Of a DNA stretch of 56,042 nt, positions 3,948-51,792 are shown piece by piece; position 1 is the first letter of the stretch, and each line of letters starts with the position of its first letter. The notes beneath the pieces are model-generated. The model was given only the letters and a program-made list of their open reading frames with translations, searched no databases and was not told where the DNA came from. The position numbers were made by a program, and so were the translations under genes. The stretch comes from a virus: positions 1 through 56,042 of the IMG/VR virus record IMGVR_UViG_3300017973_000002; one strand, written 5' to 3'.

Positions 3948-3948
3948 A

Positions 3949-4473
3949 TCAGTACCCAGTATCTTGTCTGATATGATTCACTTTATTTTTAAGTACATAA
4001 CCTTGTTCAATTTGTTCAAGTGTGAAACCAAGTAGAACACCAAGATTTAGGTAAGCTGAAATAACAGTTTCCCATGTAACGGAAGGTAGTTCAGATGCAA
4101 TCATATACTCACCAACTGCATAAATAATTCTGCTAATTTGGTGCATAATCGCTGTATATTGTGCTTCTTCACCAGTCACATGTTCTTTATGAGGTGTATA
4201 AACCAGCGTGTAGTCTACTTCAAGTAAATTCCCAATACTAAGAACAAAGTGAAGTCCATCAACATATTCACCTAGCAGACTTACATCACTTTTTGGGAAT
4301 GGTGATTCAGACCAAAATTTAAACCTTCTCCATTCATTGACCATTTCACCTAGTTCAACAAAGAAAGCAAGATAGCGTTCTTCTAAATTCGCACCGGTTA
4401 ATTTCTTTTCAGCGATAACACGTTGATCTAACTTCTCCTGCATTTGAGATAACTTATAAGCTAATCCAGACAT
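3949..4473 (-). CDS. Dimeric all-alpha dUTPase (dUTPase_2 family)
   Basis: About 174 aa. FFVELGEMVNEWRRFKFW and DGLHFVLSIGN motifs. Confidence 0.7.
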   Translation of the reverse strand: MSGLAYKLSQMQEKLDQRVIAEKKLTGANLEERYLAFFVELGEMVNEWRRFKFWSESPFPKSDVSLLGEYVDGLHFVLSIGNLLEVDYTLVYTPHKEHVTGEEAQYTAIMHQISRIIYAVGEYMIASELPSVTWETVISAYLNLGVLLGFTLEQIEQGYVLKNKVNHIRQDTGY

Positions 4474-4475
4474 TG

Positions 4476-4736
4476 TTATTCCCCCTTAATTTCAGTAAAT
4501 CCAAGATGTTCCGCAATTACCTTAAAACGTTTTTCTCCAATTCCGTGGCCTACTTCATCAAGTGTTGCGACTTTATCCTTGAAGTAGTTTAGTGCATGTT
4601 CTACACCTTCTTGACGGCCTTTTGCACGCCCCTCGTTGTATGCTTGTTGAATATCTTTTTCAGTAAATCCTTTTCTGGCTTTTCTAACTAATTCGAATTG
4701 CTTTTGCCTTCTTAATTTTCTGTCAAATCCACTCAA
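4476..4736 (-). CDS. Hypothetical protein with C-terminal helix-hairpin-helix-like motif
   Basis: Track ORF with ATG. GHGIGEKRFKVIAEHLG near the C-terminus. Confidence 0.6.
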   Translation of the reverse strand: MSGFDRKLRRQKQFELVRKARKGFTEKDIQQAYNEGRAKGRQEGVEHALNYFKDKVATLDEVGHGIGEKRFKVIAEHLGFTEIKGE

Positions 4737-4748
4737 AAAAAATGCCCC

Positions 4749-5369
4749 CTAGTTGTAGGTGATACCTAATTTACTTTTCCATCTTGAAAATGTTTTGAAG
4801 CTAACGCCCCATTTTTCTGCTAGTTCGTGATCGTTATTCACCGTCAATCGGTCACGCATGTAATCACGTTTCGTATACTCTTGGAGCAACTGCTCTAATT
4901 TACCAACTGCTTTTTCTACACCTACATCTGCTTTCCAATGTCTAAGTGTACTGTATCCTACCCCTAAAATCTCCGCAATTTCACGGTCATGTAAACCACT
5001 TTTCGTATAACTCAAATACTTTTTGGTTGTTAGTCCTTCTAACACACGTTCAGTTTTGATAAGTCCCCATGCTTTTTTTCTGCGGTGCAATGTACTACTA
5101 GGTACGTTGTAATGCTTGATTATTTCACGGTCAGTCATTTTCTTACTAGCTTTCAAATAAACAGCTTCGGTAAAATCATCATGTTCTTTTGTAGCTGTAC
5201 CATTTGTGAGAATGACACCTAATTTTTTTAACCCTTTTCCAACTGGGCAACCAGTTAAGCAAAATCCTTCTTGCACGGAAAAATTAAAGCGCTTGCGAAT
5301 TTCTTCTGCAATTTGACAGCCCTTGCATTGTTCTTCTAATGTTTCGAAATCAATCCTCTGTTTCTTCAT
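4749..5369 (-). CDS. Cys-cluster plus triple helix-turn-helix repeat DNA-binding protein
   Basis: Preferred start ATG 5369 (GAGGT RBS); the track start 5426 has no RBS. CKGCQ...CLTGCP cluster. Three repeats end in STLHRRKKAWGL, STLRHWKADVGV and KTFSRWKSKLGI. Confidence 0.7.
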   Translation of the reverse strand: MKKQRIDFETLEEQCKGCQIAEEIRKRFNFSVQEGFCLTGCPVGKGLKKLGVILTNGTATKEHDDFTEAVYLKASKKMTDREIIKHYNVPSSTLHRRKKAWGLIKTERVLEGLTTKKYLSYTKSGLHDREIAEILGVGYSTLRHWKADVGVEKAVGKLEQLLQEYTKRDYMRDRLTVNNDHELAEKWGVSFKTFSRWKSKLGITYN

Positions 5370-5634
5370 CGCCCATATACCTCGTATTATCGTGAATACC
5401 TCTCGGTCTTGGATTAATTCGGTCATTGATAGATAAATCCATAATCAATGCGCATACTTCGTCATATGTCCTTCGTTTGTTGTACTTTTTTTTCAAGTAC
5501 ATATAAATTGTTTTCAATGATTGGCCTTGCCACCACAAATACACACAGTCCTCTACTTCACTAAACGTGAAGCAAAGGTCTAGGTCAGCAAGTGCAATGA
5601 ATAATTTTTGGTCATTACTTTCACTTGTTTTCAA
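5350..5634 (-). CDS. Hypothetical protein (94 aa), TTG start
   Basis: Track ORF. GTGAGGT RBS 9 nt upstream of the TTG. Confidence 0.55.
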   Translation of the reverse strand: MKTSESNDQKLFIALADLDLCFTFSEVEDCVYLWWQGQSLKTIYMYLKKKYNKRRTYDEVCALIMDLSINDRINPRPRGIHDNTRYMGDEETED

Positions 5635-5788
5635 ACCTAATTAACCTCACTTCACCTTTTTTGTCTATCAATCACACAGAATAGCGCTCATTCTTCTCAA
5701 AATCGCTCCTATTCAACGAAAATACGATTTTAATACTAAGACAGCCACCCACTACTAAACTATCAAAATTCGACAATAAAACACATAT

Positions 5789-6622
5789 TTATTTTTTCAA
5801 AGATTCTTCAAACTCTTTCATTCTATTTTTAGCAAGTTCTCTGCGATAAGAAGTTGCTTTATTTTCAACTATCAAACTCGTTTCAACTAAACGATCATAC
5901 GAACGCACGCCAATTTGGTCAGCAAGTTCAACTGGTTTTAAATTCGATGTGCAAAAGGTTGGTAGTTTTCTGCGATAACGACCATCAATAATGTCAAACA
6001 TCGTTTCTTGCACCCAGTCCGTTAATTTCTCTGCACCAATGTCATCGAGTACCAGTAAGTCACATTCCAGTAACGCTTTCATAATTTGATGTTCAGATTC
6101 TTTTTGCCCTTTGCCAAATGTACTTCTGATTCTGCGTAATAGTTCTGGCACACTTTGAAAGACAACAATGTACCCTTTTTCATTTAGCGCATTTGTAACA
6201 GAAGCGCCTAAATGAGTTTTTCCATTCCCGTATGTTCCCCAGATTAATAATGCTTCTTGTTTCCAGTTAGGAAATTCTTCAATGAATTGTTTAGTTGCTT
6301 TAAATACAAGTTCTGTTCCTTCACGATGTTTGAAGTTTTCTAGTGTTGCTTGCGCAAATTTTTCACCTAAGTTGCTGATAGAAAATAATTTGCGTATTGC
6401 TTGTTGTTTTTCAAACTGCTCAAATTCTCGTATGCGCTTTGTTTCAAGTTCCGTTACGCATTTGCAAACTGGTTGCACCCAAGAATCAATATTTAATTCT
6501 GGAATTTGCGCCCTATGTCTTGGAATGAACGTACCACAATGTTCACAGTGTTTACCTTCTGAACCTTCATCACAAGCTGATTCCATCAAAATACTCTGGA
6601 TCGAGTTTGTTATCCCCTTCAT
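5789..6622 (-). CDS. DnaC/IstB-like AAA+ helicase loader with N-terminal zinc finger
   Basis: Walker A GTYGNGKTHL, Walker B LLVLDDIGAEK, CEHCG...CKC. RBS AAAAGGTG. Confidence 0.85.
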   Translation of the reverse strand: MKGITNSIQSILMESACDEGSEGKHCEHCGTFIPRHRAQIPELNIDSWVQPVCKCVTELETKRIREFEQFEKQQAIRKLFSISNLGEKFAQATLENFKHREGTELVFKATKQFIEEFPNWKQEALLIWGTYGNGKTHLGASVTNALNEKGYIVVFQSVPELLRRIRSTFGKGQKESEHQIMKALLECDLLVLDDIGAEKLTDWVQETMFDIIDGRYRRKLPTFCTSNLKPVELADQIGVRSYDRLVETSLIVENKATSYRRELAKNRMKEFEESLKK

Positions 6623-7403
6623 TGCTTTTCACACCTTTTGTTTTCTCTGCCACAGTAAGTTCATACGTATCTAAATAGTTATGGTTATTTAAAAACGTAC
6701 TTGGGTATCGTATATATTGGTCGATAGTATGCGCATGCGCAATATAATGCGCATATCGTTGCGTACCTTCTAAGATTTGCTCAAAACTGTGTTTCTTTAA
6801 GGCTTGTTTGAATTTCTCTAATGCACGCTTCTTATCAACCTTCTTGGGATAGACTTCCCAGAAAGAATCAAATTGCGCATGTAAATGCGTATATGTTTTA
6901 TTTTCTTTTTCTTTTTCTTTTTCTTTTTCTTTTTCTTTTTCCCCACTATCCGAATTTGCTGTGGATAACTCTTGTTCTATACCCTCAAAAGCCTTTACGA
7001 ATAAGGTTTTGATATATTCGTTAGGAATGTGTTGCGCAATGCGTAAAAGTTGCGTTTTATCCTTAACTTTGCGCAACTCACTGCGCACGCAATCTAAAAT
7101 AGGCTTACCAGTGTTATATAAGTTGTATTTTCCCCAGTTCAAAATGCAAATTTCTCTTGTTTCAGTATTGTATGTTATTAAACGGTGGTGATTTATGAAG
7201 CGTTCTAAAATGGCATTAACACTTTCAATCGTCCAACCCATTTCAAAAGCCATCTTCTTTTTTGTTATTTCATAAATCCCGATCTGTGAAGCGTTTGGAT
7301 TCGTCAATAAATACAAATAAAAATACTTATCTTCGGGAGTAAACATCTCTGTTACTTTTGAATCTTCCCAGAAAGCTGTATGAACTACACGATACTTTGC
7401 CAA
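6570..7403 (-). CDS. Phage replisome organizer (DnaD-like N-terminal domain)
   Basis: TTG start behind AAGGGAGG. MAKYRVVHTAFWEDSKV...YFYLYLLTNPN...GIYEIT pattern. Internal (EK)6 linker. Confidence 0.75.
   Translation of the reverse strand: MAKYRVVHTAFWEDSKVTEMFTPEDKYFYLYLLTNPNASQIGIYEITKKKMAFEMGWTIESVNAILERFINHHRLITYNTETREICILNWGKYNLYNTGKPILDCVRSELRKVKDKTQLLRIAQHIPNEYIKTLFVKAFEGIEQELSTANSDSGEKEKEKEKEKEKENKTYTHLHAQFDSFWEVYPKKVDKKRALEKFKQALKKHSFEQILEGTQRYAHYIAHAHTIDQYIRYPSTFLNNHNYLDTYELTVAEKTKGVKSNEGDNKLDPEYFDGISL
6905..6940. repeat. Hexanucleotide microsatellite (CTTTTT)6 = in-frame (GAAAAA)6 coding (EK)6
   Basis: C at 6905, 6911, 6917, 6923, 6929 and 6935 with T5 between. Lies in the linker of the replisome organizer. 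Confidence 0.9.
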
Positions 7404-7430
7404 CTATTGTTTCCTCCCTTATATGGTTTA

Positions 7431-7625
7431 TCATTTTTCCTTTAAATGCTTTTCCATCATTGTTTCTTTATGTTCATCTGGAACTAAAATAATACGCCCA
7501 TCTTCGTCCATAAAAATCGCTAGTTTCGTTACACCATCTATTAATCCTAAGTGTTCACGAATATGTGCAGGAATACCAAGTTGACCTGCCTTACCTAAAA
7601 CACGACTACCACCATAAAAAATCAT
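7431..7625 (-). CDS. AbrB/SpoVT (MazE-fold) domain DNA-binding protein, first gene of the replication module
   Basis: ATG behind TAGGAGGAAA. LGIPAHIREHLGL...GRIILVP swapped-hairpin-type motif. 64 aa. Confidence 0.7.
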   Translation of the reverse strand: MIFYGGSRVLGKAGQLGIPAHIREHLGLIDGVTKLAIFMDEDGRIILVPDEHKETMMEKHLKEK

Positions 7626-7669
7626 TTGTATTTCCTCCTAAAATTCAACATAATTTGACAACCTTGTAG

Positions 7670-7698
7670 ACTATATCATATTTTGCACGAAATATTAA
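7670..7698 (-). promoter_or_regulatory. Candidate sigma-A promoter for the replication module (TTAATA-N17-TATAGT with TGn)
   Basis: Minus-strand reading: TTAATA (7698..7693), 17-nt spacer, TGATATAGT (-10 at 7675..7670). An opposing TTGACA (7655..7660) with TATTTT 18 nt downstream forms a back-to-back plus-strand promoter. Confidence 0.4.
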
Positions 7699-7906
7699 GG
7701 AGAAAAACAAGAAACTGACAACAAATATAATAAATTAATAAAATTTATGAATAAATCATAACAAACAATGGAAGAAATTAACGAATAATGGAGAAAAATG
7801 GAAGTTACATAAACATCTTATATTTTTCACAGAATACTTACAACACTTGAAATTTTGTAAAAAATATAGTAATAAAAATAGCCAGTCTGACGACTGACCT
7901 TTTCCC

Positions 7907-8059
7907 TCACTTTTTATCCTTCACTGGTTTTTTATATTTAAAATAAGTGTCCTCCCAAAATTTAGCGTTAGTCTTATATTCAAGTAGTTTAGTTACTAAA
8001 AAGGTAATAACGACCCCTTCAAATCCTGCAAAAGCAAACACCCAATCTATTTCAGGCAT
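7907..8059 (-). CDS. Small membrane protein (50 aa, MPEIDWVFAFAGFEGVVITFLV...)
   Basis: ATG 8059 behind AAGGGGGT. One hydrophobic helix. Below the track cutoff. Confidence 0.45.
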   Translation of the reverse strand: MPEIDWVFAFAGFEGVVITFLVTKLLEYKTNAKFWEDTYFKYKKPVKDKK

Positions 8060-8087
8060 TATCTAAACCCCCTTAGAATAAAAAAGT

Positions 8088-8417
8088 CTACCTAACTTTT
8101 AGGTTTCCATCTTGATCTAAATTGCGCTCGCCCCAGTCCTCAAACCATTTGCGAACCTCTTTATACTTATGCGCTTCATCGTGACAATTTCGGCAAATCG
8201 TAACACCATTTCTTTTATGTCCAGTACCGCCTTGACTACGGAATATAATATGGTGCGGTACACTTTCTAAATAGGCGCTCCCACATCTTACGCAACGTCC
8301 ACCATCACGTTCAAAAATCTCTTGAATGGTTTTAGCTGTAAAACGAGAAATAACCCCTTTTTTCGCTTTTAAACGCTTATGAGTTGGTTTCGGTACGGCA
8401 CGCACTTCATTAAACAT
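8088..8417 (-). CDS. HNH endonuclease
   Basis: CVRCGS...PHHIIFRSQGG...NGVTICRNCHDEAH (HNH with flanking Cys pairs). Confidence 0.85.
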   Translation of the reverse strand: MFNEVRAVPKPTHKRLKAKKGVISRFTAKTIQEIFERDGGRCVRCGSAYLESVPHHIIFRSQGGTGHKRNGVTICRNCHDEAHKYKEVRKWFEDWGERNLDQDGNLKVR

Positions 8418-13789: not shown

Positions 13790-13818
13790 ATTATATTATA
13801 GTCAAGTTTTTCCGTCAA
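13790..13818 (-). promoter_or_regulatory. Consensus sigma-A promoter of the leftward early operon (TTGACG-N17-TATAAT)
   Basis: Minus-strand TTGACG = 13818..13813, TATAAT = 13795..13790, spacer exactly 17 nt. Confidence 0.75.
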
Positions 13819-13821
13819 TAT

Positions 13822-13835
13822 GTATAGACGTATAG
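13822..13835. promoter_or_regulatory. Candidate operator: GTATAG-AC-GTATAG direct half-site pair abutting the -35
   Basis: GTATAG at 13822..13827 and 13830..13835. The same half-site occurs as the palindrome CTATACGTATAG in the rightward early promoter (51489..51500). Confidence 0.5.
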
Positions 13836-13919
13836 ATAAAAAGAATAAAAAAAATATTCACTCTCTTTCTTTTCATCATAAAGGTGCGCACCAGACAATA
13901 ATATAGAAAGAAGGTATTC

Positions 13920-13984
13920 ACCAGTGAACACCTACACTGTTCTTTGACAATTGGATAGTATCTAGTGAATAACCAGTGAACACC
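13920..13984. repeat. Two 13-bp direct repeats ACCAGTGAACACC, 52 bp apart, upstream of the par cassette
   Basis: 13920..13932 and 13972..13984 are identical. The first is embedded in the inverted repeat TTCAC-CA-GTGAA. Confidence 0.85.
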
Positions 13985-14075
13985 CATTTAAAAAGGGGGG
14001 ACGTTGGCTATTTTGGAAGCGACCAAGCGACCGACCGACCCTGCGAAAATTCTGAAAATTGAAAGGGGTAAGAAA

Positions 14076-14483
14076 ATGGGGGAGAAGGATAAGTATTTTA
14101 ATCGCATATCAAATGGTAAACCGAAGCGCCCTACTCAACATGACATTAAACGTGAAATTCTAATTCAAAAAGTCCACCATATTGATCGCCATGTTGATAT
14201 TAAAGTGTATGTGACGGAAGAAGAACACGCTTATTTAAATCAACAAGCAAAATTTAAACAAAGTTCCGTGACAAAGATTTGCACAAATGCACTAAAGAAA
14301 GTAACGTCAGAATACCGTGAGTTTCCAGAGTTTGAATACGAAAAATCAGCTTATATGGTTCACTTTTCTGTTCCTCGTGCTTGCTACAATCAAATTGTGG
14401 GTCATTCCGTGAACTGGAAGTGCAGTATAAGAGAAGCAACACAACGAGTTTTTAATTATGGGTATGAACTAGGTTTGTTGTAA
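14076..14483 (+). CDS. Hypothetical protein with two RHH-like segments (135 aa)
   Basis: ATG 14076 behind GAAAGGGG; the track's TTG 14004 start has no RBS. IKVYVTEEEHAYLNQQAK and VHFSVPRACYNQIVGH beta-strand-plus-helix patterns. Confidence 0.65.
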   Translation: MGEKDKYFNRISNGKPKRPTQHDIKREILIQKVHHIDRHVDIKVYVTEEEHAYLNQQAKFKQSSVTKICTNALKKVTSEYREFPEFEYEKSAYMVHFSVPRACYNQIVGHSVNWKCSIREATQRVFNYGYELGLL

Positions 14484-15079
14484 TGGTTAGAATATTCAGT
14501 GAATTGAATTTACTGGAAGTAGAGGAATGGCGATATGGAACGAACCGAGAACAACGCCAGTATAAAAGGTATAAAAAAGGGAAACAATTTCTAACCGTTG
14601 AAATTCCGCACAAGGTTTTGCAACGTGCAAGAGTTTTTTGTGATGATGTAACGGAAATGCAAGTTCACTGGGAGTTTGAGCTGAACGATCTATTCAAAGT
14701 TTTAGCAACGAATTTCATTCTTTGGTTACGTGAACAAAGTGAACCAACAGATGTATATGAAGGACTTCAAAATATGTATCAGCATTTTAAACGAACTTAT
14801 AATGGGGTAGAGAAAAACCATACACATCTAGTTGGGTTTCACCGTTCCGATTACAGACCAGTGACCGTTGAACTTGAATATGGAACGATTCATCGGTTAG
14901 AAGTGTTGCTTGAAGATATGGACTATCTGAAACCAAAACACGAGTACACAGTCGAAAATGTTGTTTCTTCCTTATTATGTGACTACATTAATAAACTTCA
15001 AACGGACGGTAAGGGAGAAATTAAGAAGATGGTCAATTTCATATTAAGAGAATGGGGTGAAACGATTGAAGAAGAATGA
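14483..15079 (+). CDS. Hypothetical protein (198 aa)
   Basis: Track ORF. ATG overlaps the upstream stop (TAATG). Confidence 0.7.
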   Translation: MVRIFSELNLLEVEEWRYGTNREQRQYKRYKKGKQFLTVEIPHKVLQRARVFCDDVTEMQVHWEFELNDLFKVLATNFILWLREQSEPTDVYEGLQNMYQHFKRTYNGVEKNHTHLVGFHRSDYRPVTVELEYGTIHRLEVLLEDMDYLKPKHEYTVENVVSSLLCDYINKLQTDGKGEIKKMVNFILREWGETIEEE

Positions 15080-15959
15080 GGAAATTGTGTTAGCTGTTGA
15101 TGGTGGTTCGTATAATGTGAAAACATGCGGGGAATGTGGTCTTGATAAATTTCAATCAGCTATTGGTGAATATAATGAAGGAGAAATGGAAAGTTTCGGG
15201 GCAGACGATATGGTTTGGGAATATAAAAATGAAGATATGGAAGATAAAGGGTTTGCAGGAACTATCGCAAGGTACGAAAGTGTGAGTGGTGGGTCAAGGA
15301 AAGATATGAGTAAAAACAATTATGATGGTCAGCTTCGAATTTTACTTGGGGTTCATCGGTATTTAACGAAATACGATTTAAACCCTAGCACAATTCATTT
15401 AATGATAGGTCAACCAATTGAAACAAATGTGAAAATAGAAGCAGATGAAATGAAACGGACATTTACAGCCTTTACCCATCAAATGAAAGTGAATGGTGTT
15501 GAACGTATTCTTCCTATTAAAACTGTAACAGTGGTTCCAGAATGTGCGATTAGTTTTCAGCTATATCCAGTTCAAGAGGGAATTGTTCATTTTGTCGATG
15601 TTGGAGGGTCAACAATCAACTACGCTACTTATGAAGATGGTAAGTTTATTCGGTTAAAAAGTGGCACTATACCAGTCGGTATGAATACCGCTAAAAATGG
15701 AGAAACACAGTTAAGCACCGTTATTCGTTCCCTTTCTTTAAAAACACATGACTGGGGAAAACAAGAAAAGGTGTTTGTTCTTGGAGGGATCGCAAAAGAC
15801 GTTCATAGCCGATTAATAAGAGATTTTCCAAATGCGGTAGTTCTCTATCCAACAGTTCATGAAAATGGTGAACCGAAAATGGTTCTTCCTACATTTAGCA
15901 ACGCAATAGCTATGTACCGAGTGGGGGTTCAATTATATGGCCAGAAACAGAACGAGTAA
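15057..15959 (+). CDS. Actin-like (ParM/Alp-type) segregation ATPase
   Basis: Phosphate-1 LAVDGGSYNVK, phosphate-2 HFVDVGGSTINYA, adenosine motif VFVLGGIAKDV. Exact start uncertain (GTG 15057, TTG 15066 or GTG 15087). Confidence 0.8.
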   Translation: MKRLKKNEEIVLAVDGGSYNVKTCGECGLDKFQSAIGEYNEGEMESFGADDMVWEYKNEDMEDKGFAGTIARYESVSGGSRKDMSKNNYDGQLRILLGVHRYLTKYDLNPSTIHLMIGQPIETNVKIEADEMKRTFTAFTHQMKVNGVERILPIKTVTVVPECAISFQLYPVQEGIVHFVDVGGSTINYATYEDGKFIRLKSGTIPVGMNTAKNGETQLSTVIRSLSLKTHDWGKQEKVFVLGGIAKDVHSRLIRDFPNAVVLYPTVHENGEPKMVLPTFSNAIAMYRVGVQLYGQKQNE

Positions 15960-16251
15960 AGGGAAGCTACTTAAACGGTATAGTCTAGTCTTAAACGTCC
16001 TTGATGATGACCAAAATAACATGCACGAATACTTAGAAAAAAAAACCAACGCAAGTGCTTATTTAAAAAGTTTAGTTACCTTAGATATGAATAAAAACAG
16101 TCTACAATCGCATCAACCAGAGATTCCAATTACTTATGAAACACCACCAGTTGCACAAAATCAAGAATTCACAAACCAACCGACCGACCGAAAAAACGCT
16201 CCCCCACCAAAACAAGCATCAATTTTAAGTTCTGGGATACCGATTTTTTAA
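15937..16251 (+). CDS. Possible ParR-like adaptor (RHH-like N-terminus, disordered tail)
   Basis: Position directly after the ParM-like gene. KRYSLVLNVLDDDQNNMHEYLEK. The function is an inference. Confidence 0.6.
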   Translation: MARNRTSKGKLLKRYSLVLNVLDDDQNNMHEYLEKKTNASAYLKSLVTLDMNKNSLQSHQPEIPITYETPPVAQNQEFTNQPTDRKNAPPPKQASILSSGIPIF

Positions 16252-16279
16252 TTGACGACTTTATTAGTTATGTTATAAT
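16252..16279 (+). promoter_or_regulatory. Near-consensus sigma-A promoter with extended -10 (TTGACG-N16-TGTTATAAT), no gene downstream
   Basis: TTGACG 16252..16257, TATAAT 16274..16279, TG at 16271..16272. Confidence 0.6.
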
Positions 16280-16285
16280 AAACGC

Positions 16286-16369
16286 ACACACACCGTTTTT
16301 TGTAATAAACACACAGACATAAAAAGCTAGTTGAGTGCAATTCGCCTGCATAGTCAACTAGCTTTTTTT
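16286..16369 (+). ncRNA. Candidate ~85-nt small RNA with a CA-repeat 5' seed (CACACACACC) ending at an intrinsic terminator
   Basis: Bounded by the promoter at 16252..16279 and the terminator at 16321..16369. No ATG or SD inside. The seed is complementary to GGTGTGTGTG elements at six early-gene RBSs. Confidence 0.45.
16321..16369. terminator. Bidirectional intrinsic terminator
   Basis: AAAAAGCTAGTTGA ... TCAACTAGCTTTTTTT. 9-bp GC-containing stem (16326..16334 / 16354..16362) flanked by an A-run and a T-run. Confidence 0.8.
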
Positions 16370-16378
16370 GTGCTTATT

Positions 16379-16648
16379 TTAAACGTAAATTTCTTTTATG
16401 TTCGGATCATCATGTTCATTCGGCATTATCTTGGTGTAATACGGTGGAATCGTTTTGCGAATATCTTCTATTGTATCTGCTAATGTATAACAATTTGTTG
16501 GTTTATCTGTATCAAATAACCTTGCTACAAAGTGTTGTGGAAAATCTAACGGTTTTTCATACACAACAATAATAGGTAGTTCTATATCAGATAAATCTAA
16601 ATCACTAAAATGGTTAATGGGTTCGTTTATCATTTTATTTTTTCCCAT
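16379..16648 (-). CDS. Hypothetical protein (89 aa) co-transcribed with the abrB homologue
   Basis: Track ORF overlapping the abrB-like stop. Weak RBS (alternative ATG at 16633). Confidence 0.55.
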   Translation of the reverse strand: MGKNKMINEPINHFSDLDLSDIELPIIVVYEKPLDFPQHFVARLFDTDKPTNCYTLADTIEDIRKTIPPYYTKIMPNEHDDPNIKEIYV

Positions 16649-16919
16649 TCAATTTATCAATCTCTTTAGTAAGTAATCGTAACCCTCTTGAACTAACTGT
16701 AATTTTCCCATCTAATATAGAGATATTATCCCTAGACGTTTCACCAGTGATAACACAAGTGTTGTCATTTTTATACTTTTTAATAATGACACAATCATCT
16801 TCAACAAACATTTCGATTGGGTCATATTCATTAAATTCTAACGTCTTTCTCATTTCCTTTGGTATAACAAGTCTACCTAACGGATCAAGTTTTCGCACCA
16901 TACCAGTTGCTCTACGCAT
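16635..16919 (-). CDS. abrB: Full-length AbrB (transition-state regulator) homologue, 94 aa
   Basis: Start at ATG 16919 (GGCGGGAG RBS). It aligns over its whole length with my recollection of B. subtilis AbrB: TGMVRKLDPLGRLVIPKEMRKTL ... IIKKYKNDNTCVITGETSRDN ... versus TGIVRKVDELGRVVIPIELRRTL ... ILKKYKPNMTCQVTGEVSDDN. Confidence 0.85.
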   Translation of the reverse strand: MRRATGMVRKLDPLGRLVIPKEMRKTLEFNEYDPIEMFVEDDCVIIKKYKNDNTCVITGETSRDNISILDGKITVSSRGLRLLTKEIDKLNGKK

Positions 16920-18158: not shown

Positions 18159-21100
18159 TTACTTTTTACGAAGTTGTTTTTCTTGCTCTTTTTTCTGTGC
18201 ATTGTATTGTTGTACCCAGTTCCAAACTTCATTTAAGTTGTTCTCGTCATGTGGCTTATATTTGTTACCAATTCGAGCAATATCCATGCGTGCTTTTTCA
18301 AGTTTTGATAAGTAATCTTTTTTCTCTTGTGGTGAGATATTCGCATTACTCACATCACGCTTCATTGCACCGATAGTTGTCATAGTTGAACGCATACCCT
18401 CATATGATTTTACAATCTCATTTGGGTGATACTTTACTCCGTACCTATCTTTTGCCCCTTCTACGACTTCATGCGCTTTGTCATAAAATTTAGTCGTGTT
18501 ACGTGATCCGAATTCATCATTTGTATAGAACATGTTACCAACCACTGGTGTATCTTTTTGTGGTTTACCCATGAACAGTTCTAGTGCGCCTGCACCGTAT
18601 TTTCCAAAGAACCCTTTGATAAAGTAATCCATTTTCATTGGAGAAATACCGCCAAAATACTTCATATCTTCTGGTGACTTCCCTTTATTCACATAGTCAA
18701 AGTACGCTTTTGCTTGCCACTTACTAAAGCTACTTGTGTTTTCGTCATATTGTTCCAATGTTGGTTTCTTTTGTAAGTAGTCTGGAACAATCGGTGAACC
18801 AAAATACGTTTTGTTGCTATTCAGTTCTAGCATTGTGCTAATCCAAATTGGTACAACTGGCATACTGAACGCTTGGTCAATTGGGTTGAACCAATCCTCA
18901 CCGATTTTACGTGCTTCTTCGCTACCAAACTGAGAATCTAAAAATCTTTCTACATAAGCCATCGGCAGGGCATACATAAATGGTTTTGCAATCGCAATAT
19001 ACCCGAACCCAGTTGGCATTAACCAATAACGGTCACGGAAATATGACGGAATATCATCGTATTTATCATCACGGTCTAATGCTTTCGCTAAGAAGTACAT
19101 CATTAAGGTAATCGGTAGAATTTTCATTGCCATACGCCCAAGCACACGCTTCGGATTTGTTTTAAACTCCGTTGATTCACGGTACATACCTTGTATGCTA
19201 CCATGTGCGAATGATACTGGCATTGTCACTTTACGGAATCCTTGATTTACACCATGTAAACGGAAGTTCGTTGTAATGATATTCGCTTCGTGACCTGCTG
19301 AAATAAAAATCTTTTCAACCTTCTTGCGATCCTCGGCCGATAACTTCTTACGTCCGTCCATAATGTCATTGAATGATAGTCCTTCTTCTTCTGCTAGTTT
19401 CTGAATCATCGCAAACCATTGACCCATGCGGTGAATACTTTCACCTTTATGGAGATACGCACTCGGATTAAAGACTTTAAATAATTTATTATTTTTTAAC
19501 TTAAACAATGTCGGGTCGCCAGTTGGAAGTAAATCTTCCATTTTATTTGCTTTACGGAAATTTCGTAAAACAGATTCAGTTGAAGCGCTCATGCCCCCAC
19601 TATTGATGTATTGTTCAGTCGTATTTTTATCCATTCCAAGTGCAAGTGCTGTACCTTTGAATAAAGAGTATATCGCCCCTCGGCCACTGTTCGTTTGCAT
19701 TGCTGTACCCATTGTGTCACGAACTAATGAATCTGTGATGAATTTTGCGGTTGCGATATTTGTTAAACGTGTAAATCCAGATAGTCTACTTACAATTCGT
19801 AAATATGCTCCAACTGTTAGAGGTTGCATACTTGCTAAAGCATTATAAATATCTGGTGCAACTCGCATGAAAACTGGAATACGTTTACCTTTACTGTCAT
19901 ACTTCCAATTCATCAAGATTGGTTCTTTACTGCTTAACTGGTCACGTTTCATGAAAATCTGGAATACGTGTCCAGATAGAGAACCTTCTACATCATCTGG
20001 GTTAATACCTAAATCTTGATTAAGGATCGTTGCAACAGCTTCATCAATTTGCCCTGCTGAAATTCTTGCTACATAGCTTTGTGAAGGAATGATTTCACCA
20101 AATTGCCCCATACCTTCGGTTCTAAGTGCATTTTCTAAGCTATTTAAGACCCCTTTAAATTCTGCACTCGTTTCTGTTTCAACTAGCTTATACATTGAAG
20201 CTGTTAAGAAGTCTAACACAATCGCTTGTTTACCAGTGTAGGTTTTAACAGTTTGACGTGCTGATTTACGTTGTCCGTCTTGGCCGTTCAATCCTTCTCT
20301 CTTACTTGCATAATATGTTGGAATGTAGAAACTTGAGCCTTGTTTTACTTTTTCTTTTGTAATTTCATCAATGACTGTTCCTTGAAGTGCTTTTTCTAAG
20401 ACGATGTTACTTAGGTTTTCTGTGTACTCTTTAACGATATTTTCAAGGAATGGGAATAATTGTCTGCTATCCTCGATAATTTTCTTCGTTAAATTTTCAC
20501 TCATTGGGTTCACTTCAAACTTCTGTTCACCATCTTGGTTGAGCCTTGAATAACGTTCATTGTATCGGTATGCCTGCATAATAACAGATAATGTTTCAAA
20601 TGCGCTCATATCATTTTCTTTTCCAAGAATTGTATCAAGCGCTTGTTGAATAGCAGGACTTCTCATACCATCAAGTGCTTTACCTTTTAAGGTTAAATTG
20701 ATTTTTTCAAGTCCGTCCATTGCTACTTCTTGCAAGCTACGTGAACTAATTGCGTGAAGGTTCGCAAGTTCTTTAGGATTAGTAATACTTGAATCTTTTT
20801 TGTATTCTTTATAGAAATTTTCATAACGTTTTAGTGTACTTGGTGGAACGACTGTTTTATCTTCACGTTCTATCGCAAGGTATAAATCATGTAAGTGGTC
20901 TGGTAATTCACTGAAATTATCATACTGAATGATATTACGTCCACTGTTATCCTTCGCCCAACCAGTAAAGCTATTAATCGCTTTATCTCGGCCTTCACCT
21001 GCAAGTACCACACGTTTCACTAATTGGAAGTCTTTAATGTCACCATTCGCTTTTTCCATATCTTGAAATGGTATTGTGAAATCAACTAAGTCAAATACTC

Positions 21101-24100
21101 TACGTGCTACGAATCCTTTGACTGTTCCAGTTAATTTTTTACGAATTGGCGCATGTTTATCAACTTTCCCAACTTTGTATTCTTCACCGATCCCTTTTGA
21201 AATCTTATCGTCTTTTGGGAATTTAACTGTTCCAGAACCTCTTGTGAAGCTATCGCCTTCTGTATCCTTCGTTGCCCACTCTTTAGCATCATCAAAAGCA
21301 CTTTTCAGTTCCTTGTTTCCTTCGATGAACGTATCAATGAAAGAAACTGATTGTGGTGCTAGTTGTTTCGCCCCTTCATTGTCGATAAAGTACATCTGGA
21401 ATAGTTCAGCAAGACCTTCTTCTGCAACTTCTACTGGGTTTAATCCAGTTAAATCTGGGTACACTTCATTCGCTACATGTGTTAATTCTTTTTCGAGTGA
21501 TTTAAACACATCGAATCCAACATTATTCACAAACGCATGACCAAGTTCATGTGCCGTTACACGTAAGTTATGAACTTCTACCCCTCTAACGTTACCAGTC
21601 TTTCTGTGCGTATCATACATCGCTCTAACTTGCGAGCCACCACGGACGTATCCTTCACGTAAAACCGTATCAAGTGCATTGGCTATTCTATCACCAATTT
21701 TCTTCGCAACCTTCGGACTAATGACATTCGTTGTACCACCATCAAGACTTGTATCTAATAAGTTTTTGATACGGTCTTTTTTACCTGCTTTTAAGTTTTT
21801 AGCTGTGTTATTTTCACCTTCTGCTTTTGTGCGTTGTTCAGCTTCTTGTTGTCTTATGCTTTCAGCATTGTGTTTACGTTTTGTTGCTTCGCCCTCTGTA
21901 ATCCCTTTACGGTCTGTACGTTGGTAGTTGCGAATAAATTCCGTAACTGGCATTTGTTCTGAATTACCAGTCGTATAAATTTCGTGTTCTGTTTCATTTC
22001 CCGCACCGAATAAATCTGGATCACTAGACTTCGTAATATCTGTGATTTCTGAAACAACTACATCTGTTTTATAGTCTGGTTTATCTTCTTTAAGTTTCTG
22101 CTTATTTTTCGAAGGAACTGCACGGTAATCAATACCAGTCACCGTATAAAGTTTTCCGTCAGCTCTAAATACAGTATCAAAATTATTTGTTAATTCATGT
22201 TGTAAGGCTTCTTGACGTAAGCTAATGACATTGTTTTCAAGTTCTCTTAGCTTATCGCCCTCGGTGAAGTTTTCCGTTGCTTTCTTCTCTGATTCTTTTT
22301 TCGCAACTTCTAGTTCAGCTAACTGTTTTTCAGTGTATGGAGAATAACCTTTCTTCGCTAATGTTTCTACTGTATTTTCAAGACGTGCCATTGTTCCACG
22401 TCCTTCACTAGCAATAATATCACTAGCTTGAGTACGATTATAACCATTTACTGTACCGTCTTTTGCAATTTCACCGATTATTAAACTTTCATCAAGACCT
22501 AATGACTGATATGCGCTTTTACGTCCGTACATTACAACGTCCACACCACCAAGTTGACCAAGAACCTCTTGATAGTTTTGTTTACGTTCTTTTTTACGAA
22601 TGTCTAACACTTTCTCACGTAAGGCTTCTGTACCTTCCTTACGGTCTGTAAATGTTTTTCCGTCCATCACTAAATGAAAATCATCGCCACGAGTTGATTT
22701 AGCTTTTGCTTCTAACTTTTTATCAAAAGCAAGGGTTTCTTCTAAACTAGCTTTCTTCTCTGGGTATTCAGCAATTAGTTTAATTGCTTTCCCTTTTTGC
22801 TTCGTAAACTCACGCTGTAAATCAACTAAACGTCTAATCTCTTTTTCTATTTTCATTAATTCAATCATGCTCGTGTTACCAGTTGCACTCGCTTTGATTT
22901 CAGAAAAACTCATAATCTGTTCAGCGATTTCGTCCATCGAACGAATTTCAGTACCACCAGACATTACCTGTGCGATGAATTTCGCTTTGCTTTCAAGGGT
23001 ATTCCACATTAGGGCATCAAAACTTCCCTCGGTTACATAAGTCTTTATCGCAACATTTGGATTGAAGTTCCCTTGACGGATAATACGTCCCTCACGCTGT
23101 TCGATGTCGGCAGGTCGCCAAGTGGGATCAGCATGATGTAGCATTGTTAGACGTTTTTGTAAGTTCATACCAACGCCCATTTTTCCAGTTGAACCAATTA
23201 ATATTCGAATTTGCCCATCATTAAATAATTGAGATAATTTTTTCTTTTGGTCTGGTTTATTGTAATCGTGGATAAAGGCGATATGGTTTTCATCTATACC
23301 AAGTTCTACCAAACGATCTTTTAGGTTTTGGTACATACTTTTGTCAAACGCACTATCGTTATTACCTTCATCATCTTCTTTTACTTTGTCACTTGCTTTT
23401 GGTACACCAATATCCATGAATACAATCTGCGTACCATTATCAAACTTAAATTCTTTCCCTTCGCCATCAACACCTACATTATCTTTTGTTGTTCGTTTGT
23501 ACTCGTCAACTACTCCATTTGCAATTTCATTTAACTTGCTTCTTGGGTCACTCTCGGCTGTTCCATCAAATAAACGATAATCAAGCGCTAGTTGTTTACC
23601 TTCACCAGTTAGTTTCAGTGGATTGTCTTTAGAAGGGTCGTCAATTCCATTCGCTACAACTTCAGCACGTTTGACTATTATTTCTAAGTAAGTCCGTTGC
23701 TTTTCGTTCATAGGTGTTGTGATGGTAATACGGTCAGCATTTGGTCGTTTTAAATACGGAATATCATCAGCCATTTTTATATCAGCAATTGACTTAAAGA
23801 TACGCATAAGTTCAGCTACACTTGTAAATTTAGAAAAACGAGTTTTCTCAACGAATTTTCCTGCGGTATTTAATTCAACAGAATTTACTGTTGATCCAAA
23901 CATCTGCGCCCAACCATCAAAATGTTCCATACCTAGCTGTTTTAATTCATTTGGTGCAAGATAACGAAGTGTTGTAAACATTTCAGCCATACTATTTGCA
24001 ATGGGTGTACCAGTTGCAAAAACAACTTTACCGTTATTCTTATTCATATAGGAAGTTTTCATATACATATCAAACGCTTGTTGGCTATTTGAATTTGGCA

Positions 24101-27100
24101 AACCACCAATGCTTCCTAGTTTTGTATGGTATTGCAAATTCTTATAGCTGTGTGCTTCATCGACAAATAAAGCATCAACGCCTAATTCTTCAAATGAAAT
24201 CCCTAAATCTTTTTTATCTTTCTGCATTAAGGTTTCAATCTTTGCTTCATGCTTTTCAATCACTTTTTGAATTTCTTTTACTGTTGGCGACTTCCCATCT
24301 TCACTTTGTACGCTTTCAAGGAACGAACGTAATTTTGAAATTTCAGAATGAAGAAACTCTTGTTCATTCTCTGGGTTCAGTCCAAGTCGTTTAAAACTTT
24401 CGTAACTCATAATGACTACATCATAGTCACCATATTTTACATCAGCTAATGAACGGAAACGTAAAGCACGGTTCTTTTCAACTTCCATTTCGTACTGTTC
24501 ATCGCTCCACTTAGCATTACGAGTAATTGTGATCCCTGCAATATCCTTTTCTGTTTTCCCAGTCCCAATGACTTTGATTTTAGCGTTCGGATACGAATGT
24601 TGGAATTCCCTTGCGTGCTGTTCCATCATAAAAGTAGGAACAACCATCATTGGTTTTTTGATAATTCCTAGTCGTCTACCTTCCATGATTGAAACTTGCA
24701 TTTCTAAACTTTTTCCCGCACCCACAACATGTGCCAGTAACGTATTTGCTGAACGTAATATACGCATAACCGCATCTTTTTGGTGCTTGTATAACTTATA
24801 AACTGGGTTTAGGTTCGGAATTTCAACTGGGTTTTCATCAGTTCCATACATTCTCTCGCCATCGTATGTTCTTGGAACAACACTTGTGAATGAATCATTA
24901 TAGAGTTTCGTTAAATTTTCATTTACATCTGGTTCACCAATGACGAATTGTTTTAATTCATTCTGCAACTGTTCAACCACACGGTTAGAGATATTCAAGA
25001 TTTCTTCCCTTGCTTTATCTTGTTCACGCATAGGAGTATTTTCTACATCTAACGGTGGTTTTGATGATTTCATATTCATTAAATCTTCAATGACTTGGAT
25101 TCCAGTTTTTCCATACTTCGCATACTTGTGGCTAATCGCAAATGTTTCATTATTATGATGAGAACGTCCAGTTGTCGATTTTAACCCCCACGTTGCTGTA
25201 TCAAAGTTATGTGTGACTGTTACATTACTTAAACCAAGCGTTTTTTCAATGAATCGTTTGTAAACTTCTTTTGGAATCCACCCTTGTCCAAAACGAATGT
25301 CGTCAGCAATTTGTTCCATTGTTAATTGTGACGGAAGAACCTTTTCAAGTTCTGCAATATTACGGTTTAATCCATTCGCTTTTGCTACTGCTAATTTTTT
25401 AGCGATATTTCCACTTAAATACTCATCGTCCGTTACATACGCTTTTTCTTGTGGGTCATAGTAAATGTGACCATCTTTTTCAAGTTCTGCGATTGTATCG
25501 TCTTTTGATTTACCAAGTAAGTCGGAAACTAATTGAAGGTCTAACTCACCACGATGAACAAGTGATAAATTAAGCGCTTCTTTTACATTACCTTTTGTAT
25601 CCATTACAACATCTGGAAATGTTTGACGCGCCTTGAATAAATCAACTTTTGCCCACTTCTTACCATCTCGTTTTTCAAGTGAACGAAGCATAGCAACTGT
25701 ATGAACATCTTTTTCAAATGGTGTGAGTACCCCTTGTTTATTCATTTCACCGTGGGTTTTCACAAAATCATCATACATTTTATTTAACGCTTCACGTTCT
25801 TTTACCATATCTTCTGACGGAATGGCTTTGTTTTCTTCTTTTGCCATTAAGTCTAAGTAAGATTGGCGAACCTTTAATGAATCTCTTAATACTGGAACGT
25901 GTTCTTTTGCTACTTTATATGGAATCCATTGACCATATGTGTACTGGAAGAATACACCACCACGCTCATGAATTGCCCCTTCATGTTGGCCGATTGTTTC
26001 TTTTGCCCAGTCCTCACTTACAGCGTTATTCACTTTTACTGGCACATCACTTACCGCATTACCGTGAATAAAACGATTTTCAAAAATCTTTTTAATCGTT
26101 TCAAAAGCCTTTTTGAACTTTTCTTCGAATCCATCATTCGTAAACACTAGTTCGTCATGGTAGCGAGTACCTTCTTTCATTCCCCCTGCAAGTTGCTCTG
26201 GGTTTGCAATGAAGTATTCATTTAATTTACTGCGACTTCTACCGTCATAGCTGACATTTTCTGCGATACGTGAAGATGTGTGATTACTACCTTGTACTTT
26301 TTTACGGAAAAATAAAATATCCGTTGCAACATTTGTGCCTGCGTGTTTAAATGCTCCTTGCGGTAAACGGATCGCTTCAAAAAAGTCTGTATTCGCTTCA
26401 ATATATCCACGAACTTGTTGACTTTGCCATTCCTTCCCATCAAGTGAGCTAGTCGAAGTGATTAATAAACCAATACCACCTTCTTTTAAAAGGTCTAGGT
26501 TCTTCACTAGGAAGTAATCATGCACGTTATGTGTCGCATAAGTCATTAAAACTCCGTTATGGTCTAATTTCCCTTTTGGTAGACGGTTGCCTTCTTCGTC
26601 TTTTTTCTGACCTTTCGTTTTGTCCGTGTAAGTTAAATCATTTACTTTCTTATCAACGAACGGAACATTACCAATAACAACATCAAAGCTACCTTCGGTT
26701 GCGCTAAAATTTTGGAATCCCATATGATGATGGGTTTGGTTCGGATACAGTGCCTTTGTAATTCGGTGCGATAAATCATTCAGTTCAACTGTTGTGAATT
26801 TATGTTTCCCTTTTACTTCATCAACTGGGAACGCTCCAACAAACATACCGTTACCAACTGAACTTTCTAAGATTTTTCCACCATCAAAGCCTGCTCCAAG
26901 TAATACATCATACATTTGACTAGCGATTTCGTGACTTGTGTAAAAACTTGTTAAGACTGTATCACGCATACCTTCCCACTCTTGCTGTGTAATCAATCCA
27001 CTTTCTACGTGTGACTGTAATTCAGCATATTGTGGTTTTGATCGGTCAAAATATTCTGGTAAACCGCCCCAACCTTGATATTTAGCTAGAGTATCTAATT

Positions 27101-30100
27101 CCTCTGCTGTACCAAAACGGTCTTCACGTTCTAACATTTTAAGAACGTTAATTGCTTTTATGTTGTTCTCAAAACGTTTTTTTGCATTTGGTTCAAAAAT
27201 ATCCTCTGTAATTACATGGTCTAACGGAACAATTCGCTCATGAGGGATTCCATTATTTGACGGTGACGTGATAGTATCTCCTGCTGATCCATTCGGTTGT
27301 TTTGTCCCTTGATTGGATTCTGTACTAGGCTTGCTGTCATTTGTTCGTTTACTGCCGTCATTAGGTCTTTCTCCGTCTTTTCCAGAAACAGTTTCAGTTG
27401 GTTTGTTTGTTTCAGTTCCTTGTACTGGTTCGGTTGGCGTTCCATTAGGTAGCTTTCCAGTTCCGTTAATGTTGGAAACATTCTTTTCACCCTCTTTATT
27501 TAATCTTTCGAGCGCTTTAGCAATAACTAGTTTTGATGAACGGTCATTAAACATTTGGTCTAAGACTTTCATTTCACCATCACGATTATTTTCCATCGCA
27601 TCATTCATACGGTCTACTACCCAGTCTGTGATATGTCTATTGAATATCATTGACAAGTTATTTACTGAATCATTTGGGTTTTCTTTAACATATGTTTGGA
27701 AGTTAGGAAAGTTTGCTAATTTCTCTGCAAAGTGATTTACACCGTCAGTAAATTTTTCAAGACTTGCTTCTCCGCTTCCCAAATCGGTATTCCCTTTGCC
27801 AGTAACGTCTGCATTTCCTTGTTCATTTCCTTTTGTTTCTGTATCGCTAGGGTTTGGAGTTGATGAAGGCTCATCTCCTTGTACTTCATTGGTTGTGTTC
27901 TCTCTAGGTGTTGGAGAAACATCAGTCCGTACCTCGTTAGCATTGTTTTTCACCTCTTGACCAAGCATTTCTTTTGCTGAATCTAATTCTTGTTGCCTTG
28001 CAAAATTAACTGTATTATAAAAATCCTCTAAATTAAAGAAACCATGCTTTTGAACGAAACTCTGTGCAGATGGAATACCGTATGCTACATCTCTTAATTC
28101 TTGCAATTTCGAACCTTCCATTGCATATTCCATGTTCATGTAATCATTTACATCAGCTACACTAAAGATATGCTTCATTTTCTTTCCATTAATATCTTCA
28201 TTGCGATATGGCATACCTAACAATTCGCCTTTAATTGGGAATATCCATTCTTGCTTAGGTTCTTGCCGTCCGAAACGCTCCATTGGTGTGAATTTAACAG
28301 TTGCAGATTTTTTATTTTCACTGTATGCCATTTCTGGGAATCCACTACCATCAACGCTATCTTCATCTAATTCAGCTTGTTTAAAATCTTCGAATTTATT
28401 ATATCGTTCAGCAGTATCAACAAATGTTTTTAGTTGTGGTTTTTTAAGTGCTTCAACTTTTTCTTTTAAAATTTCAGAAGGAGGAACTACATCGTCCTTA
28501 TTCCAAAATTGCATTGCGCCATGACTTTCCATTCCCGAAACTGTCAATCCTGCGGGTGCTAATACTCTTAACATTTCACCTTCTTTATAATCTGTTTCGA
28601 GTACCCCAGTAACATTACTTATCTTGTTTTTTACAAATGCACCTTTTTTAAATTCAGTTTCATTTTTTGTGACCGTTTCTGACCCTTGACTTTCATTTAC
28701 ACGTCCATTATCTTGCTGTGTAGTTTCATTATAAGTAGGAAGTTTTTTATTAATACGGTCAAGTGCTTTTTGCATACTAATTGTAATGCCATTTGGACGG
28801 TTACGTTCATATGTTACTTTACCAATATGTGCAGACTTACGTTTGAATCTTTGGTCTGTTATTAATCGTTCTAGTTCATGTGGTAAACGGCCATCGAATG
28901 TATAACGAATAATTTTACCATCTTTTTCAAGTTTTCCTTCTTTTGCAAATGGAATTTGAGCGTATCTTTCTGCTTCACTTAGATTTATGTCGTTCATGAT
29001 CTCATTCATACGTGCAGTGTGTTCAGATAACGTATTGATATTGTCATTTATTTGTTTTTCGTCTTGCGCTTTTTTATCTTTCTTAGCTTGTTCTTCTTGA
29101 CGTTTTTCTTCTTCTTTTTGTGCTTGTTCTTCTGCAATTTTACGATTTTCTTCTTCTGTTGCTTGACGTTCTGCTTCTTTCATACGGTTAAAATCTTCCG
29201 CATGTGCAGGGTCTTCCGTTGGTGCATTTTCCCCTAAAATTTGATTACGGATATTGTCAATTTCATGGGTAGTTAAACTCATTTCTTCCCACATTAATTT
29301 CTCTTGAATGTTATTGGTAGACAGATAAGGGTCTTTTTCTAACATATCCTTAACAGCATTATATTCTTCTGAATGGTTCGTTTGAACTTCTTGTCCACCA
29401 TCAATAAAATCTTTTGTCATTTCAATTACATCATGGTTCGTTTCTGTGTAACGGTCTGGATAGTTTTCTACTAATTTTTGTTTCATTTCATCTATGTTCA
29501 TATCAAACATATTGTAAACGTCCCAACCGTGCTGTGTATCTTCTAATACAACAGCTACATGACGATCCATTTTCCGTATCTTATTAACAAGAGATTTTCT
29601 TTCTTTCTTACTTAATGCTTGATAACGGTCATATTCCATTAAATGATGATAAATATGTTCGTCCTCTGGACTAATATCTTCTGCTTTACTGCGTTCTTTT
29701 TCTGCATACGCTTCTTGTCGTTTTTGATTTTCTTCTTCTTGTTTACGTTGTTTTTCTTTTTCAGTTGCTTTATCTTCTTTGTTTTGTTCAACTTGCTTTT
29801 TAAAATTATCTAAATGGGTTTGAAGTCCTTGATTAAACTCGATACCATTCGCTTCTGCAAATGCTTTTAGTTCTTCAAGTTTTTTCATTCGGTGCTGTGG
29901 TGTACGTTTGCCCATTGTGAAAAATTCTTTCTTCATTTCATCAAACTGTGCTTGTGCGCCTTTTTCAGACGTGCGACCAGTTTCGGCTACTTTTCCAGTG
30001 CCTTTTTTATGTTGCCATTCATATAAACGTGATGTTGGAACAACATGTGTACCAATTTTTCCTCCTGCATCAACCGTGATGTAATGTCCACTTGGATCAC

Positions 30101-51783: not shown

Positions 51784-51792
51784 ATATTACAA

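Follow-up and report, generated by a model that had tools for sequence, protein, structure and literature searches.

The c4 RNA of the phages P1 and P7 is an immunity RNA that blocks the ribosome-binding site (RBS) of icd/ant, and in Firmicutes the regulators RoxS/RsaE, FsrA, and SR1 use C-rich seeds to occlude the G-rich Shine-Dalgarno (SD) sequences of several mRNAs. Small RNAs (sRNAs) of the MicL/DapZ type are found mainly on enterobacterial chromosomes and depend on Hfq. In T4, RegA and RegB shut off the translation of early genes via a signature in or near the RBS, and both effectors are proteins. To our knowledge, the riboregulators by which phages control phage genes (c4, sar, OOP, and aQ) have one target each. 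Precedents for phage antisense RNAs are c4 of P1/P7 and sar of P22, and the phage riboregulators covered by a 2025 review all come from Gram-negative systems (PMC12197685). This study concerns a short promoter-terminator cassette (positions 16252-16369) that directly follows the partition (par) genes of a viral genome, IMG/VR record IMGVR_UViG_3300017973_000002; the whole stretch analyzed, 56,042 nucleotides (nt), is referred to as the window. In this single genome, the cassette may constitute the gene of a trans-acting, SD-occluding sRNA directed against the early operon of the phage itself, a tentative reading to which slightly less than an even chance is given.

The promoter, the terminator, the lack of an open reading frame (ORF), the free seed, the specific complementarity, and the way in which the target sites are arranged can all be seen in the sequence. 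According to the sRNA reading, the host sigma-A RNA polymerase would start at about A16286 and stop at a terminator shared with neighboring operons, giving an RNA of ~84 nt. Its unstructured 5' end (ACACACACC-G-UUUUUU, then a degenerate second CA copy) would pair with an A-run plus GGUGUGUG, i.e., with the SD and spacer of six rightward early cistrons, and the pairing would block 30S binding. In this way, one RNA could dampen a block of 11 or more genes, perhaps 16, via the entry sites that are preceded by a gap and via coupling. The par mRNA would read through the same sequence, so that the CA seed would also be carried in the par 3' untranslated region (UTR). Such an sRNA could provide immunity in the prophage or plasmid state or could act as a timer for the shut-off of early translation in the lytic cycle, and the data are equally compatible with both roles.

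Promoter, seed, and terminator behind the par genes

The cassette begins with a sigma-A-type promoter on the plus strand (16252-16279). Its -35 element (TTGACG, 16252-16257) abuts the parR stop codon (TAA, 16249-16251), with an A/T tract just 5' of it at that stop, and is followed by a 16-nt spacer with TG at 16271-16272 and by TATAAT at 16274-16279, forming an extended -10 (TGtTATAAT, 16271-16279). The near-consensus promoter that the original prediction had placed after the last par gene is therefore present at those coordinates, and it is the best sigma-A-type match of the whole circular genome. Matches at 11 or more of the 12 promoter positions are found at three sites on both strands (112 kb), this one being the sole site with a TG-extended -10, and the chance that one of three such promoters is placed at random in a stretch of ~70 nt is ~0.002. 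The promoter, which is known as a consensus match only, serves no protein gene, as the next plus-strand gene lies >35 kb away. A rather unlikely explanation is that no separate RNA is made, and that the stretch is the par 3' UTR plus the shared terminator, with a fortuitous or vestigial promoter and a CA run that represents a decayed, inverted module of an A-run and GGTGTGTG. The AT-rich genome (36.6% GC) favors this explanation, but a promoter with 11 of 12 matches and the TG is found once in the genome, namely at the cassette.

The candidate non-coding RNA of ~84 nt would span 16286-16369 on the plus strand, with its predicted start (A16286) 7 nt past the -10 and its end in the U-run of the terminator. 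Between promoter and terminator (16280-16369) there is no ATG, no SD, and no ORF, and the earlier statement to that effect is borne out for ATG and SD alike. When an 85-nt RNA is folded, its energy is -22.8 kcal/mol (z = -4.7) and the 5' ~36 nt stay unpaired. This free end holds the first seed (16285-16301, plus strand), which consists of CACACACACC at 16285-16294, G at 16295, and T6 at 16296-16301, and which is antisense to a ribosome-binding signature of an A-run plus GGTGTGTG(TG), here referred to as the GT-type RBS. The segment that covers the -10 and the seed is duplicated internally: TTGTAATAAACACACAGACA at 16300-16319 is a direct repeat of TTATAATAAACGCACACACA at 16273-16292, with 85% identity and a spacing of 27 nt. 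The ACACACA at 16309-16315 in the duplicated segment is a possible second seed. Seed, G-T6 run, and second ACACACA all lie where they had been reported.

Other identities for the cassette were considered as well. No Rfam family matched the cassette RNA in scans at gathering and E-value thresholds, in which generic hairpins only appeared, far below threshold, and there was no match to the C4 covariance model. A small ORF on the minus strand was ruled out, as no start codon follows the RBS-like motif there, and so was one on the plus strand (TTG, 16331-16483), which lies inside the terminator and lacks an SD. A leader or attenuator role was dismissed because no plus-strand gene follows the cassette, and a downstream parC centromere because the repeats of the cassette are unrelated to the likely parC upstream of the par operon. 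An identity as a defence system was tried and rejected.

The bidirectional intrinsic terminator (16321-16369, both strands) is built from an outer stem (16321-16334/16354-16367) and an inner 5-bp helix (to 16339/16347), with T7 at 16363-16369 and, for the minus strand, a U5 that derives from A5 at 16321-16325. Its strength, claimed in the original prediction, was confirmed by the fold and by a genome-wide ranking, in which it is the second-strongest hairpin with at least T6 and the strongest on the plus strand. It is common to the par operon, the candidate sRNA, and a convergent abrB-like/orf84 unit; the stretch from the parR stop to 16321 contains none, which makes the shared one the first terminator downstream of parR. 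Because it also ends these two units, the terminator lends no independent weight to a separate RNA gene, and it would be required in any case if no such RNA were made. What speaks independently for an RNA gene is the promoter, together with the seed. As judged from its sequence, the cassette has the layout of a 3'-UTR-type sRNA with a putative promoter of its own and a shared mRNA terminator.

The convergent unit (16379-16919, minus strand) encodes an AbrB/SpoVT-like regulator (16635-16919, 94 aa) and the acidic protein orf84 (16379-16633, 84 aa), which could be a regulator pair expressed in the prophage. It has its own extended -10 promoter (TGgTAAAAT), and a terminator at 17015-16981 separates it from the late operon. 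The cassette sits in an island formed by genes for maintenance and regulation that are transcribed separately, namely par and then abrB-like/orf84. Transcription is convergent over the bidirectional terminator, and the overlap consists of the ~49-nt terminator only. This bears on an explanation that is considered unlikely, namely that the RNA is real but has another role, either as cis-antisense RNA to the 3' end of the abrB-like/orf84 mRNA (as in type I toxin-antitoxin systems or in the manner of SR4/RatA), as a regulator of host mRNAs, or as an element of the par 3' UTR, with the match to the GT-type RBSs being incidental. The convergent RNAs would be fully complementary over ~49 nt via the bidirectional terminator, the 3' end of the sRNA would be identical with that of the par mRNA, and host mRNAs are possible targets. 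However, the convergent mRNA would end before it reaches the single-stranded part (16286-16320), leaving that part without a cis partner, and what the convergent genes encode is not a small membrane toxin but an AbrB-like regulator plus an 84-aa protein that is acidic and non-hydrophobic. No hydrophobic segment is present in orf84, and the convergent genes do not encode a small hydrophobic toxin peptide. With these partners, a type I toxin-antitoxin identity (pAD1 par/Fst, bsrG/SR4, or txpA/RatA) was ruled out.

Antisense matches to early ribosome-binding sites

On the plus strand, the SD and spacer regions of six early cistrons are antisense to the seed, and for all six the coordinates and match lengths given in the original prediction were confirmed. 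All sites lie 7-14 nt 5' of the start codon. The first early cistron (ATG 51541) has the 7-nt match GGTGTGT at 51529-51535. Before ATG 51859, the 9-nt match GGTGTGTGT is found at 51849-51857, with a second 9-nt match, AAAAACGGT, at 51870-51878. The third site (52294-52310) is a tandem GGTGTGTG-GTGTGTGTG before GTG 52308, in which GGTGTGTGTG, from 52301, matches at 10 of 10 positions. The fourth, GGTGTGTGTGTG at 53030-53041 before ATG 53042, again contains GGTGTGTGTG (10/10) and gives the best predicted duplex (-20.7 kcal/mol, or -13.3 after correction for accessibility). The last two sites are GGTGTGTGT (9 nt) at 53709-53717, before ATG 53721, and CGGTGTGT (8 nt) at 54279-54286, before ATG 54290. 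Matches of the seed to start regions that reach 8 nt or more fall on early GT-type RBSs only, which also speaks against a different role for the RNA. Three exact copies of GGTGTGTGTG are present in the genome, two in the early operon and a third, in antisense orientation, in the cassette. If up to one mismatch is allowed, the number of sites rises to 10 (2.6 expected), a count that none of 100 shuffles reached. On the plus strand, CACACAC occurs in the cassette and at 38803 only.

An unrestricted duplex scan was inflated by long internal loops and was replaced by short-seed and accessibility-corrected scoring. When scored with a 20-nt seed, the six start regions of the GT type take ranks 1-6 among 75 by duplex energy (-16.3 to -20.7 versus a median of -7.5 kcal/mol), and the sixth-best value is reached by 0.3% of random genomic 20-mers. 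When the unpairing costs of both RNAs are added, five of the six sites rank 1-5 among 64 (-9.6 to -13.3 versus a median of about -5.1 kcal/mol), while the sixth (52308) shows no interaction within the 25-nt length limit of this scoring; the observed fourth-best score is reached by 1.7% of random genomic 36-mers. Empirically, a 36-nt stretch of this genome is expected to contain 0.0058 10-mers that are antisense to one or another of the six start regions.

Some further sites were noted. A bipartite match (8 + 12 bp) at 5643-5682 on the minus strand, upstream of orf94 (5350-5634) in the leftward operon, is a speculative additional target; it gave the best non-self duplex of the genome-wide scan (-25.8 kcal/mol), which was the unrestricted scan inflated by long internal loops. 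The RBS of a DnaC-like loader, AAAAGGTGTG (6631-6640, minus strand), is partly complementary to the seed as well, and these two sites could link the RNA to the replication operon. Within the early operon, the 3' end of the gene before the 54290 cistron contains CACACA (54256-54261), which can form a cis duplex with the GT-type SD of that cistron (-5.7 kcal/mol, no better than shuffles) and could be a local occlusion that is lifted by translation of the upstream gene.

Early operon layout and control

Over its first 3 kb, the rightward operon has six starts with a gap of 15 nt or more before them (51541, 51859, 52308, 53042, 53721, and 54290). All six carry the GT-type RBS, as does none of 11 coupled starts, the other cistrons up to 55799 overlapping the upstream gene or lying at most 4 nt from its stop. 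The operon (51541-56042 and on to 1-1547) is arranged in blocks, within which cistrons are linked by overlaps of -8, -4, or -1 nt or by gaps of 0-4 nt, and those that overlap or abut are probably translationally coupled; a GT-type RBS stands at the head of each block in the first 3 kb. Farther on, two genes that again follow a gap (272 and 813) use canonical SDs. The distribution of six out of six gap-preceded starts versus none out of 11 coupled ones indicates that the GT motif marks independent ribosome entry sites, and its occlusion there could silence a translationally coupled gene block. The original prediction regarded the cassette as encoding a trans-acting RNA repressor of a host-takeover operon. 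The seed-RBS complementarity, the orphan unit, and the free 5' end support the first part of this description, whereas the label "host-takeover" is unsupported because the products of the rightward operon are ORFans without informative family matches.

A more far-reaching proposal is that a private code of SD and spacer at every independent entry site heading the early operon and one ~84-nt anti-code RNA beside the par genes make up a master translational switch, which would silence 11-16 genes in an RNA-only circuit for immunity or timing, with a multi-target regulon inside the phage's own genome; this is possible but leans toward the doubtful. If true, it would mean that phages can build a private translational address code, and it would represent a compact RNA-based mechanism of immunity or timing. 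It would also supply a portable multi-gene translational off-switch for Bacillus-type hosts, and a recipe for searching orphan phage genomes, i.e., for a repeated RBS signature plus an orphan antisense seed.

A 14-bp palindrome, GGATT-N4-AATCC, is found in the early operon only (51822-51835, 52218-52231, 52267-52280, and 53682-53695) and could serve either as a DNA operator or, at the RNA level, as a stem-loop for processing or stability. Three of its copies lie exactly 13 nt 5' of GGTGTGTG, each after a hairpin of 10-11 bp, and three target sites stand in such modules. The minus strand of the cassette reads hairpin - TTTTTATG - ... - AAAAAACGGTGTGTGTG, like these early intergenic modules, and this favors the explanation in which the CA run is a decayed module and no separate RNA is made. 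However, the alignment with the modules is unconvincing beyond a 16-nt motif, the GGATT palindrome and any similarity of the hairpin are missing, the minus-strand motif has neither a start codon nor an ORF behind it, and the seed segment is duplicated internally. A whole-module inverted duplication was ruled out by the poor alignment outside the 16-nt motif.

Early control likely has a protein layer as well. Paired TCTATAC half-sites are present at both early promoters, as an inverted pair, TCTATACGTATAGA, at 51488-51501 (within 51480-51510) between the -35 and -10 of the rightward promoter, and as a direct pair at 13822-13836 (within 13791-13840, minus strand) just 5' of the -35 of the leftward TTGACG-17-TATAAT promoter; they are probably a shared protein operator. 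The genome encodes DNA-binding proteins of the RHH, HTH (with weak similarity to CI repressors), and AbrB-like kinds, the last adjoining the cassette. With these operator-like pairs and proteins found, the earlier statement that no CI-type repressor is visible is not supported, and an RNA that reinforces a protein repressor is more plausible than one that substitutes for it.

Relatives were sought in several collections. Megablast and blastn searches against phages and plasmids returned none. Searches with ParM, orf84, amidase, capsid, TerL, and YqaJ in viral and genome contigs, and with ParM, orf84, and the C-terminus of a giant protein in a set of 5.8 billion proteins, gave no relatives useful for following co-variation of seed and targets. 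DNA patterns of the early module and the cassette found no relatives in viral, metagenome, and genome contigs, where three viral seed matches were chance matches in coding sequence. The other copies of the locus are 100% identical only, namely, an ENA assembly (L001, 55,931 bp) and a Logan contig (L051, SRR7004341). The GT-type RBS is absent from the relatives detected by TerL (up to 53% identity). In one of these, the distant relative L002 (TerL 53% identical), a module of hairpin GAGTnnTTAnnACTC, AAAATAnnTTTAAGGGGGT, and ATG occurs 14 times in the early operon (2463-8130, minus strand), which points to repeated hairpin/RBS modules as a general feature of early operons of this kind; no convincing antisense cassette was seen in L002, of which part of the contig was covered.

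Several of the results weigh against an sRNA gene directed at the early operon. Perfect pairing extends over a short stretch only (9-10 nt; 14-16 nt if a bulge is allowed), and since the six targets share one motif, there is one coincidence to be explained and not six. Of dinucleotide-shuffled seeds, 6.3% reach the sixth-best duplex value (20-nt seed), and 6.7% of dinucleotide shuffles reach the observed accessibility-corrected score. Two convergent operons already account for the terminator. Relatives of the cassette, the flanking proteins, and the early module were not found in any collection searched, and repeated hairpin + RBS modules are also present in the early operon of L002, with 14 copies of TTTAAGGGGGT, so that a shared RBS motif alone does not imply an RNA regulator. 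Against controls, the complementarity fares unevenly: the sites rank at the top and random genomic sequences seldom equal them (0.3-1.7%), but shuffles do so in 6-7% of cases. Counted as one coincidence, it has a p of ~0.006-0.07 according to the control used; it is supportive of targeting but not overwhelming, and these moderate statistics also favor the explanation without a separate RNA. That the sRNA is produced, that it represses, and at what time it does so is what we infer from the arrangement of promoter, seed, and targets.

Genome setting and comparison with described regulators

The ends of the window overlap exactly over 123 nt (1-123 = 55920-56042), which identifies the genome as circular (or terminally redundant) and complete, with a unique length of ~55.9 kb. 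It looks like that of an uncultured Bacillus-type phage with a Gram-positive (Bacillus-like) host, and its ParM-like protein is nearest to proteins of Bacillus-group phages (~34% identity). The par operon (14004-16251, plus strand) comprises orf159, orf198, and the genes for ParM-like (15057-15959) and ParR-like (15937-16251) proteins, as identified by ALP_N and partition-protein matches. Directly 5' of it, TTCACCAGTGAACACC is found twice, 52 bp apart (13894-13984), each copy with the palindrome TTCACcagTGAA; the pair is likely the parC/operator for the ParR-like protein. A plasmid-prophage, lysogenic life would follow from ParM/ParR only, and ParM homologues are present in many Bacillus phages; no integrase was seen in the genome.

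The leftward early/replication operon (minus strand), with its TTGACG-17-TATAAT promoter at 13818, encodes the RHH protein, a YqaJ exonuclease, ERF, SSB, a DnaD-like replisome organiser (6570-7403), the DnaC-like loader (5789-6622), a dUTPase, and a sigma factor. The latter (3005-3532, minus strand) is of the SigF/G/E/K (sporulation) type, which would imply phage-specific late promoters and a spore-forming Firmicute host. The long late operon (minus strand) runs from TerS/TerL, portal, capsid, and tail genes via a 4922-aa polyvalent protein to holin and amidase, up to the terminator at 17015-16981. This protein is a single ORF (18159-32927, minus strand) that takes up about a quarter of the genome and resembles a "large polyvalent protein", with Eco57I-like, SNF2/helicase, and LPD38 domains; its closest relative in the set of 5.8 billion proteins reaches no more than 34% identity, over the C-terminal part. 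The rightward operon of small ORFan genes extends on the plus strand from 51541 across the junction to 1547.

It is highly improbable that the cassette specifies a par-proximal RNA for replication of the plasmid prophage, either as a primer or in copy-number control. The non-coding unit directly adjoins the partition genes, the RBS of the DnaC-like loader is partly complementary to the seed, and a precedent exists in the RNA-based origins beside parABS in extrachromosomal prophages of mycobacteriophages (PMC7157519). However, the origins of this kind occur in phages without RepA (PMC7157519), and the present phage has a DnaD-like organiser and a DnaC-like loader of its own; a strongly terminated RNA of 84 nt is unlikely as a primer, and neither iterons nor an AT-rich unwinding element are found near the cassette.

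As an sRNA against early translation, the candidate would resemble c4 of P1/P7 in its mode of action, which likewise is a phage RNA (~77 nt) that acts in trans by short complementary stretches over an RBS (PMC12197685). P1/P7 and the present phage also both carry partition genes, and the latter may, like P1/P7, be of the plasmid-prophage type. However, c4 is processed from the operon of its single target, whereas the candidate would have its own promoter and six or more targets with one motif. Its position, ~20 kb from the targets round the circle (35 kb in window coordinates), is unlike the arrangement of c4 upstream of its target. The candidate has no similarity to c4 in sequence or structure, and the host here is probably Gram-positive. 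The candidate may work in the way of P1 c4, but it falls outside that family, as tests of homology and of operon arrangement both came out negative. P22 sar and lambda OOP are, like the candidate, short terminated RNAs that repress phage regulatory genes by base pairing, but they are transcribed opposite a single target to which they are fully complementary, whereas the candidate would be trans-encoded and match many sites partially.

With RoxS/RsaE, FsrA, and SR1, the candidate shares a sigma-A promoter, an intrinsic terminator, and an unpaired seed that contains pyrimidines and C. Its seed, a CA repeat that ends in CC plus a U-run, fits a phage-private SD and spacer, whereas seeds of the RoxS/RsaE type fit the generic GGAGG; unlike these regulators, it is phage-encoded, would act on the phage's own genes, and matches no Rfam family. 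The placement of the promoter at the very end of the upstream ORF (here parR), together with a shared operon terminator, resembles the MicL/DapZ type. Lastly, the joint post-transcriptional silencing of many early cistrons that is proposed here is also the task of T4 RegA/RegB, with the difference that the proposed effector would be an RNA.

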